A stretch of DNA of 7,833 bases from a virus (lineage: Duplodnaviria; Heunggongvirae; Uroviricota; Caudoviricetes), in IMG/VR virus record IMGVR_UViG_638341082_000003, positions 1 to 7,833 of that record; one strand, 5' to 3'. The translations under genes were made by a program, and so were the position numbers. Below the pieces are notes generated by a model. It did not search any database and was not told the origin of the DNA. It saw only the letters and a program-made list of their open reading frames with translations. Positions 5,376 through 6,148 of the stretch are shown here, piece by piece; the first letter of the stretch is position 1, and each line of letters starts with the position of its first letter.

Positions 5376-5840
5376 ATGTCTGTATATACAACTGCAGAAT
5401 TACTGGCATCGACCCAGCATCACTTTAAGTTCGATCCGCTGTTTCTGCGCCTGTTTTTCCGTGAAACCTATCCTTTCACCACGGAAAAAGTCTATCTCTC
5501 ACAAATTCCGGGACTGGTAAACATGGCGCTGTACGTTTCGCCGATTGTTTCCGGTGAGGTTATCCGATCCCGTGGCGGCTCCACCTCTGAATTTACGCCG
5601 GGTTATGTCAAACCCAAGCATGAGGTGAATCCGCAGATGACCCTGCGTCGCCTGCCGGATGAAGATCCGCAGAACCTGGCTGACCCGGCTTACCGTCGTC
5701 GCCGTATTATTCGGCAGAATATGCTGGATGAAAATCTGGCGATTGCCCAGGTCGAAGAGATGCAGGCAGTTTCTGCCGTGCTTAAGGGCAAATACACCAT
5801 GACCGGTGAAGCCTTCGATCCGGTTGAGGTGGATATCTGA
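5376..5840 (+). pseudogene. E: Major capsid protein gene E, 5' fragment (154 of about 341 codons)
   Basis: MSVYTTAELLASTQHHFKFDPLFLRLFFRETYPFTTEKVYLSQIPGLVNMALYVSPIVSGEVIRSRGG...GEAFDPVEVD matches the lambda gpE N-terminus from memory with scattered substitutions. Homology ends at about 5836, followed by I-stop where lambda continues MGRSEEN... Confidence 0.9.
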
Positions 5841-6148
5841 TGCTCTCGCCGTCCCTGAATGCAGCACAGGCCACGTTTGATGCGGTGGATAACAGCAACA
5901 GTGATGTTGTGGCTGTTATGGCCTCGGTCACTTACCGCGGTGCTGATGCCCCCAATAACTGCCTGGCCTGGAAAGTGAAAAATGGCAGCCATGCAGGTGC
6001 AACGATTACAGAGAATGGCGTACAAAGCGACACAAACAGCTGGACGACTGTCTCACAGAGTTTTATGGCCCAGCCAGGCGGAGAAACGCCTTTCACAAAG
6101 GGTGAACTGACTTTCACAGCGGAATTGTTTAATCAGGCAAGGACATAA
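5840..6148 (+). CDS. Hypothetical protein, 102 aa; possibly the 3' remnant of a tail gene made translatable by the deletion joint
   Basis: ATG 5840-5842 overlaps the E' stop TGA 5838-5840 and follows GAGGTGG at 5826-5832. The frame is open only from 5828. The product is Ser/Thr/Gly/Ala-rich and looks beta-rich. No homolog recognised. Confidence 0.4.
   Translation: MLSPSLNAAQATFDAVDNSNSDVVAVMASVTYRGADAPNNCLAWKVKNGSHAGATITENGVQSDTNSWTTVSQSFMAQPGGETPFTKGELTFTAELFNQART

Follow-up and report, generated by a model that had tools for sequence, protein, structure and literature searches.

The cryptic lambdoid prophages of Escherichia coli K-12, such as DLP12, Rac and Qin, carry truncated late genes as remnants. 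The prophage described here resembles these elements in being defective, in having kept its terminase and fibre/Tfa genes and in carrying internal deletions which fuse fragments of unrelated late genes. In the present case the endpoint of the deletion is, to the base pair, that of independent deletions in other strains; a brief literature search returned no description of such endpoint sharing for the K-12 elements. Deletions with a fixed endpoint provide a second point of reference. These include the Int-promoted deletions of the lambda b region, which are anchored at att, deletions adjacent to IS elements, and the footprints that are left by transposon excision.

The DNA analysed here, referred to as the window, comprises positions 1-7833 of the E. 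coli 101-1 contig AAMK02000005.1 (7,833 nucleotides), and its prophage adjoins potB. Besides the features listed in Table 1, it holds a lambdoid late region with the end of an endolysin gene, Nu1, A, W, a portal fragment and a C-terminal fragment of gpD. Residues 5-148 of the capsid protein E fragment match positions 1-138 of 329 in the Pfam profile Phage_cap_E. The partners of the B::D deletion are recognised as fragments of Phage_portal_2 and HDPD (Pfam), and about 2.4 kb are missing there relative to the prophage of strain E300010 (L003), window 1985-5114 corresponding to L003 4985-8114 and window 5117-5836 to L003 10526-11245. One patch upstream of Nu1 (window 1698-1984) does not align to the E300010 prophage, which is elsewhere 96-99% identical, and resembles a local substitution, or a patch of mosaic origin, close to cos and Nu1. 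At the other end of the window, the fibre gene has the same length and position as that encoding WP_001297488.1 in strain AST85 and is the usual downstream neighbour of a 349-aa gene discussed below; the spacer that precedes it is identical in the window, AST85 and E300010, and is the same as in intact prophages.

Table 1. Features of the window, and rearrangements with an endpoint at the shared site in the 349-aa gene (L numbers are contigs; slashes mark junctions or divisions within a motif)
Feature	Position	Strand	Remark
B::D internal deletion junction	5115-5116 (window 5114-5117)	.	Portal B codon ~210 to head-decoration D codon ~44
Truncated major capsid gene E, left deletion partner	5376-5840	+	Codons 1-152; the junction adds Ile and TGA
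In-frame TGA, E-derived, closing the remnant frame upstream	5825-5827	+	Direct sequence reading
Deletion junction, 6-bp microhomology GGATAT	5831-5836	.	Homology to intact E (L003) ends at 5836; homology to the 349-aa gene starts at 5831
3' remnant, codons 245-349 and stop of the 349-aa gene	5831-6148	+	100% DNA identity, L001:9001-9318
Intergenic spacer, 30 nt, with Shine-Dalgarno GGGAGG for the fibre gene	6149-6178	+	Native sequence
Tail fibre gene, 369 aa, intact	6179-7288	+	phrog_6859 'tail fiber protein', E=4e-169
Tail fibre assembly gene (Tfa), 176 aa, intact	7303-7833	+	Pfam Caudo_TAP (PF02413), E=1.2e-21
Leftward deletion, capsid E	The window		GGATAT microhomology
Leftward deletion, terminase A	L009:368		GGATA microhomology
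Leftward deletion, Stf-N	L004 (~7000), L094, L110-119, L136		CGGA microhomology
Leftward deletion, tail tube V	E300010, L003:13980		No microhomology; V parent ATCGGT/AAGG
Leftward deletion, myovirus tail sheath	L120:3992		...GACGG/TATCTG
Rightward deletion, reciprocal	L108:2700		349-aa gene kept through ...CCGGATA, joined to the 3' end of the fibre gene
Insertion of +1 T, copy otherwise intact	L121:~3995		GGATAT[T]CTG

Between the E fragment and the fibre gene lies an open reading frame of 102 codons with an ATG start (5840-6148, plus strand). Its location and its translation in the ORF listing are exactly those given in a preliminary description of this DNA, and so is the finding that its frame is open only from 5828, because an E-derived TGA closes it upstream. 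That description had recognised no motif in the product, and profile searches agree: neither Pfam nor NCBIfam contains a match to the ORF, the anti-phage defence models of PADLOC match neither the ORF nor the 349-aa protein, and the ORF shows no match to Tfa (PF02413), unlike the gene at the end of the window. It had also proposed, as the simplest reading, that the ORF is the C-terminal part, of about 100 residues, of the gene which normally precedes the fibre. DNA comparison bears this out. When window 5300-6700 was searched by megablast against 5,426 complete E. coli genomes, homology began abruptly at 5831; window 5831-6398 is 100% identical to L001:9001-9568 of AST85, and upstream of 5831 nothing aligns. 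The match in AST85 and E200086 falls on the 3' end of a gene for a 349-aa 'hypothetical protein', hereafter the parent gene, of which the ORF represents codons 248-349. Its start codon is the parent's internal Met248, in the context ...SDSEAGYL-M-LSPSLNAAQ...

The same relation is seen at the protein level. The ORF product matches phrog_8291 at positions 248-349 of 349 (PHROGs, E=1e-64) and the AST85 parent matches it over 1-349 of 349 (E=2.4e-239); the ORF, which covers only the last part, is therefore a fragment of a family member and not a protein of member length. It encodes the C-terminal beta-sandwich domain alone, the N-terminal concanavalin-like domain and the linker (residues 1-244) having been deleted. 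We found no evidence contrary to this reading and are highly confident of it: the ORF consists of the final 102 codons of a 349-aa gene from the lambdoid tail-fibre module, left behind as a pseudogene remnant by a deletion that joined E to the parent gene. Considered as a gene, the ORF is a prophage remnant of an ordinary sort.

Public records describe the fragment differently. It is listed as a protein in RefSeq (WP_000950939.1, identical to EDX40109.1 and designated P0001 here) and is called 'Fimbrial protein' in one public record, and some members of a related fragment cluster are labelled 'transcriptional regulator'; neither label finds support among the present results. WP_000950939.1 would be better annotated as a pseudogene fragment than as a protein-coding gene.

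The manner in which the remnant arose can be read from the two sequences that met at the junction. E (GTGGATAT/GGGC) and the 349-aa gene (GCCGGATAT/CTGATG) share GGATAT at the join, which is therefore a 6-bp microhomology junction. A microhomology-mediated deletion at this hexamer in E. coli 101-1 removed everything from E codon 153 through parent codon 244, and with it J, the Stf N-domain gene and every head-completion and tail gene that had still followed E. Lacking all tail-shaft and tip genes, the prophage is unable to build tails. GAT ATC TGA now closes the E frame, the stop codon of which (5838-5840) overlaps the ATG of Met248 in a TGATG, while an E-derived GAGGTG sits 9 nt upstream of this ATG. 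No promoter-like site on the plus strand and no terminator were found near the ORF; having no promoter of its own, the remnant would be transcribed only by read-through within the late operon. Given the GAGGTG and the stop-start overlap, translation might then be possible if the late operon is transcribed, and the product would be an isolated CBM-like beta-sandwich without a known partner. The predicted autonomous fold, the usable Shine-Dalgarno sequence and the overlapping codons leave room for expression and perhaps for some residual activity of the fragment.

The intact parent gene occupies a defined place in the prophages which carry it. In AST85 and E200086 the order is gpJ, Stf-N (365 aa), the 349-aa gene, the fibre gene (369 aa) and Tfa, Stf-N being a 'prophage tail fiber N-terminal domain' protein with a phage_tail_N domain and Phage_fiber_2 repeats. 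The AST85 element, which sits at the potB locus, may have undergone rearrangement of its own. The PHROG to which the parent belongs (example: E. coli WP_302301978.1, 349 aa) is listed as of unknown function and has no counterpart model in Pfam or NCBIfam. Its members are always found in tail-fibre modules, and the ORF of the window likewise stands upstream of a fibre gene and Tfa. More distant members lie between baseplate gpI and a gpH-like fibre gene in P2-like prophages, after J and phage_tail_N in lambdoid prophages, and beside Mu gp48 in a Mu-like context. Within E. coli the parent gene is rare, being present in ~59 of 5,426 complete genomes (~1%) with at most four copies each; these are mostly human ETEC/EAEC isolates. 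A tblastn search of 50,697 deposited phage genome records did not detect the protein in any of them, and a literature search on the gene returned nothing.

Structure prediction gives a consistent picture of this protein. The AF2 model of the parent (pLDDT 92, pTM 0.90) predicts, with high confidence, a concanavalin-like jelly-roll N-domain followed by a small CBM-like beta-sandwich (jelly-roll) C-domain, and the 102-aa fragment alone is also modelled well (pLDDT 86). The beta-sandwich that had been suspected from the amino acid composition is thus present in the prediction. Its type differs from the Ig-like fold that had been put forward for structural testing: the models fall within the jelly-roll beta-sandwich fold of CBMs and concanavalin-like lectins, and neither a match to a Pfam Ig family nor an Ig/FN3 domain as best structural match, of the kind exemplified by the Big_2 C-domain of lambda gpV, was obtained. 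With PL7 alginate lyases, GH131 and CBM22/35/6 (PDB 6kcv, 3w9a, 8zqf) there is similarity of fold only, at 7-13% identity, and this jelly-roll comparison identified no catalytic or sugar-binding residues.

Counterparts in architecture exist among phages. In a Foldseek search of BFVD, the whole two-domain parent model aligned with phage proteins of 316-371 aa (TM 0.62-0.66) from Serratia phage JS26, Achromobacter phage AchV4 ('virion structural protein'), Providencia phage Kokobel1 and others. Like the parent, the proteins of these three phages share the two-domain architecture over their full length and are encoded in the tail module beside the fibre gene; unlike the parent, they belong to virulent or unrelated siphoviruses, and at 12-16% identity no sequence homology is detectable. 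AchV4 proteins of this size from the tail module, encoded beside the fibre gene, have been detected in virions by LC-MS/MS (PMC7996906), the correspondence between these and the BFVD model being one of size and module and not of gene-level mapping. Based on fold and neighbourhood, we propose the intact parent as a candidate tail accessory or receptor-binding protein of the virion with lectin-like domains, whose two predicted domains probably bind surface polysaccharide. The family would thus be an uncharacterised representative of a familiar kind, the lectin-like tail accessory protein.

The main competitor of the remnant reading sees the 102-aa ORF as a small gene with a function of its own, perhaps that of a fibre accessory or glycan-binding protein, which is translated by coupling to the truncated ORF upstream and is retained because it is useful. 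The preliminary description had kept an independent small gene as an equal alternative. Recurrence speaks for it, since the identical ORF with its TGATG overlap is found behind four kinds of gene fragment (E, terminase A, Stf-N and tail sheath) and since in a fifth case the C-domain is fused in frame to the N-domain of the tail tube protein; at least 24 contigs carry a 155-aa Stf-N fragment (Stf-N') followed by the 102-aa ORF, the 102-aa product is predicted to fold by itself, and RefSeq lists it as a protein. All these arrangements, however, sit in plainly degraded prophages, and the Stf-type looks clonal: on three contigs from the potB locus (L194, L196, L198) it is accompanied by terminase A::tail Z and V::L fusions. 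On a further contig (L197) the same module lies beside the trp operon rather than potB.

The small-gene reading also predicts stand-alone versions, and the searches made found none in any intact phage or prophage. A word-indexed search with the 102-aa product yielded only proteins of about 100 aa, and the contexts of these matches proved to be truncations, deletions, frameshifts or partial genes at contig ends or starts. A search with the full parent yielded 28 relatives, of which every complete one is 343-387 aa long, down to 41% identity, and all 25 full-length relatives lie in this range of lengths; HMMER over 1.84 billion representatives added only relatives of about 350 aa, a few of them at 28-32% identity, and fragments. 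Two candidates for an independent gene were rejected, namely P0002 (105 aa), which sits at contig starts, and P0004 (104 aa, 74% identity), which stems from a full-length gene whose linker either has lost 47 nt, with a frameshift, or contains a scaffold gap. The allele in question (L013:1-1020 and L012, 74% identical to the parent, with the 47-nt frameshifting deletion between the domains) has a ParB-like gene downstream, in place of the fibre gene, and may belong to a phage-plasmid. Unbiased scans at the DNA level returned 26 intact copies and two with the Stf-type junction. In addition, Met248 is not conserved, many family members having L, I, S or V at this position, and no promoter precedes the ORF. 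The recurrence itself is better explained by a hot spot at the DNA level, given that the same position also underwent a reciprocal deletion and a +1 frameshift. Taken together, we consider a functional small gene very improbable. The last reading, also raised earlier, that of a chance open frame in junk DNA without coding ancestry, has the missing Pfam and NCBIfam matches as its sole support and a negligible probability, refuted as it is by the PHROG match (E=1e-64), by 100% identity to a conserved gene, by homologues down to 24-40% identity that align across the entire fragment and by the confident fold prediction.

With the ORF taken as a remnant, attention shifts to the position at which the parent gene was broken. 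Seven independent rearrangements fall within 8 bp in parent codons 244-246 (CGGATATC; CGGA/TA/TC), at L001:9000-9007 or window 5830-5837 (window coordinates being those of L001 minus 3170). They comprise five leftward deletions with different partners, one rightward deletion and one +1 T insertion (Table 1). The leftward deletions retain the parent from L001 position 9000-9004 onward, the central TA (9004-9005) can be kept by both flanks, and the junctions use 0-6 bp of microhomology. The fusion of V to the C-domain in E300010 (L003:13570-14298) is an in-frame ORF of 242 aa in which the V N-domain extends to ...WVSSIG, and the prophage that carries it lacks genes G through J. Other endpoints exist as well, such as a tape-measure::8906 junction (L005, L008) and the 47-nt linker deletion (L013), and breakage of the parent gene is therefore not confined to the 8-bp site. 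By a rough estimate the clustering within 8 bp is far beyond chance, with the reservation that ORF-based look-ups favour endpoints no further than ~100-170 nt upstream of Met248; other routes led to the V, Stf-N and reciprocal events. We put forward tentatively, as a possibility rather than as the expected outcome, that the start of the C-domain is a genuine hot spot of site-specific breakage or recombination and that the ORF of the window is one of its products.

Two further observations were made around this site. Several draft contigs start at ~L001:8914 (L007, L010, L011, L112) and others at ~L001:9008 (L122-L124); contigs that begin repeatedly at two sites, one of which is the hot spot, indicate many genomes with several copies that diverge exactly there. 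In another contig, of 247 nt (L109:1-247), the parent gene runs up to ...GGATATCTGAT and then continues, across a 7-nt inverted repeat (ATCTGAT/ATCAGAT), into its own codons ~160-115 in reversed orientation. This inverted self-junction lies 7 nt beyond the hot spot and is either an inversion or an assembly artefact; because it may be the latter, it was left out of the count.

What might break the DNA at this position was approached by considering candidate causes in turn. A blunt EcoRV cut (GAT/ATC) was rejected, because the Stf-N, V and sheath junctions keep T9004, a base on the left side of the cut which the left parents lack. Secondary structure was likewise set aside: a hairpin or cruciform is predicted to have no more than a weak 7-bp stem, the site lying in the loop, and the folding z-score of the region, 0.5, is not significant. 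CRISPR-Cas3 self-targeting is disfavoured by reasoning, because leftward deletions would keep any protospacer and PAM on the right side. Selection for TGATG coupling would not impose base-pair precision, and it fits neither the reciprocal deletion nor the +1 T event. No Chi site occurs in the window or near the site in L001. Neither an att-like sequence nor a repeated copy of the site was detected in the prophage or its flanks with up to six mismatches allowed, the breakpoint and its surroundings showed no IS or recombinase site, and no copy examined contains an inserted element there. We know of no convincing resemblance between the breakpoint and Gin/Pin/Hin-type invertase sites or the shufflon sfx sites. 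Scans of metagenome, IMG/VR and GTDB contigs with a 17-mer gave mostly chance matches and no new junction types, and the literature search for such a hot spot found nothing.

Measured against the fixed-endpoint deletions mentioned at the outset, the site shares several traits with them: many independent deletions have one endpoint in common while the other varies, a small insertion resembles a footprint at the site, and the central TA can be retained by both flanks. It differs from them in that no att-like repeat, IS or recombinase site accompanies it and in that its junctions show 0-6 bp of microhomology. The most economical idea is a site-specific break that is followed by microhomology-mediated joining. 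The break could be caused by a nuclease, by the excision of a cut-and-paste element that duplicates TA, or by a recombinase which acts at pseudo-sites.

If the clustering does have such a mechanistic basis, it would represent a rare natural bacterial example of a sequence-specific hot spot for microhomology-mediated deletions, and the breakpoint could indicate an unrecognised nuclease or mobile element that acts on phage tail genes. The parent family, for its part, emerges as a small, unnamed and conserved component of the tail-fibre modules of lambdoid, P2-like and Mu-like prophages of Enterobacteria. Its predicted lectin-like fold makes the parent protein a candidate for an additional receptor-binding protein, which could account for host-range differences among the prophages of ETEC and EAEC.
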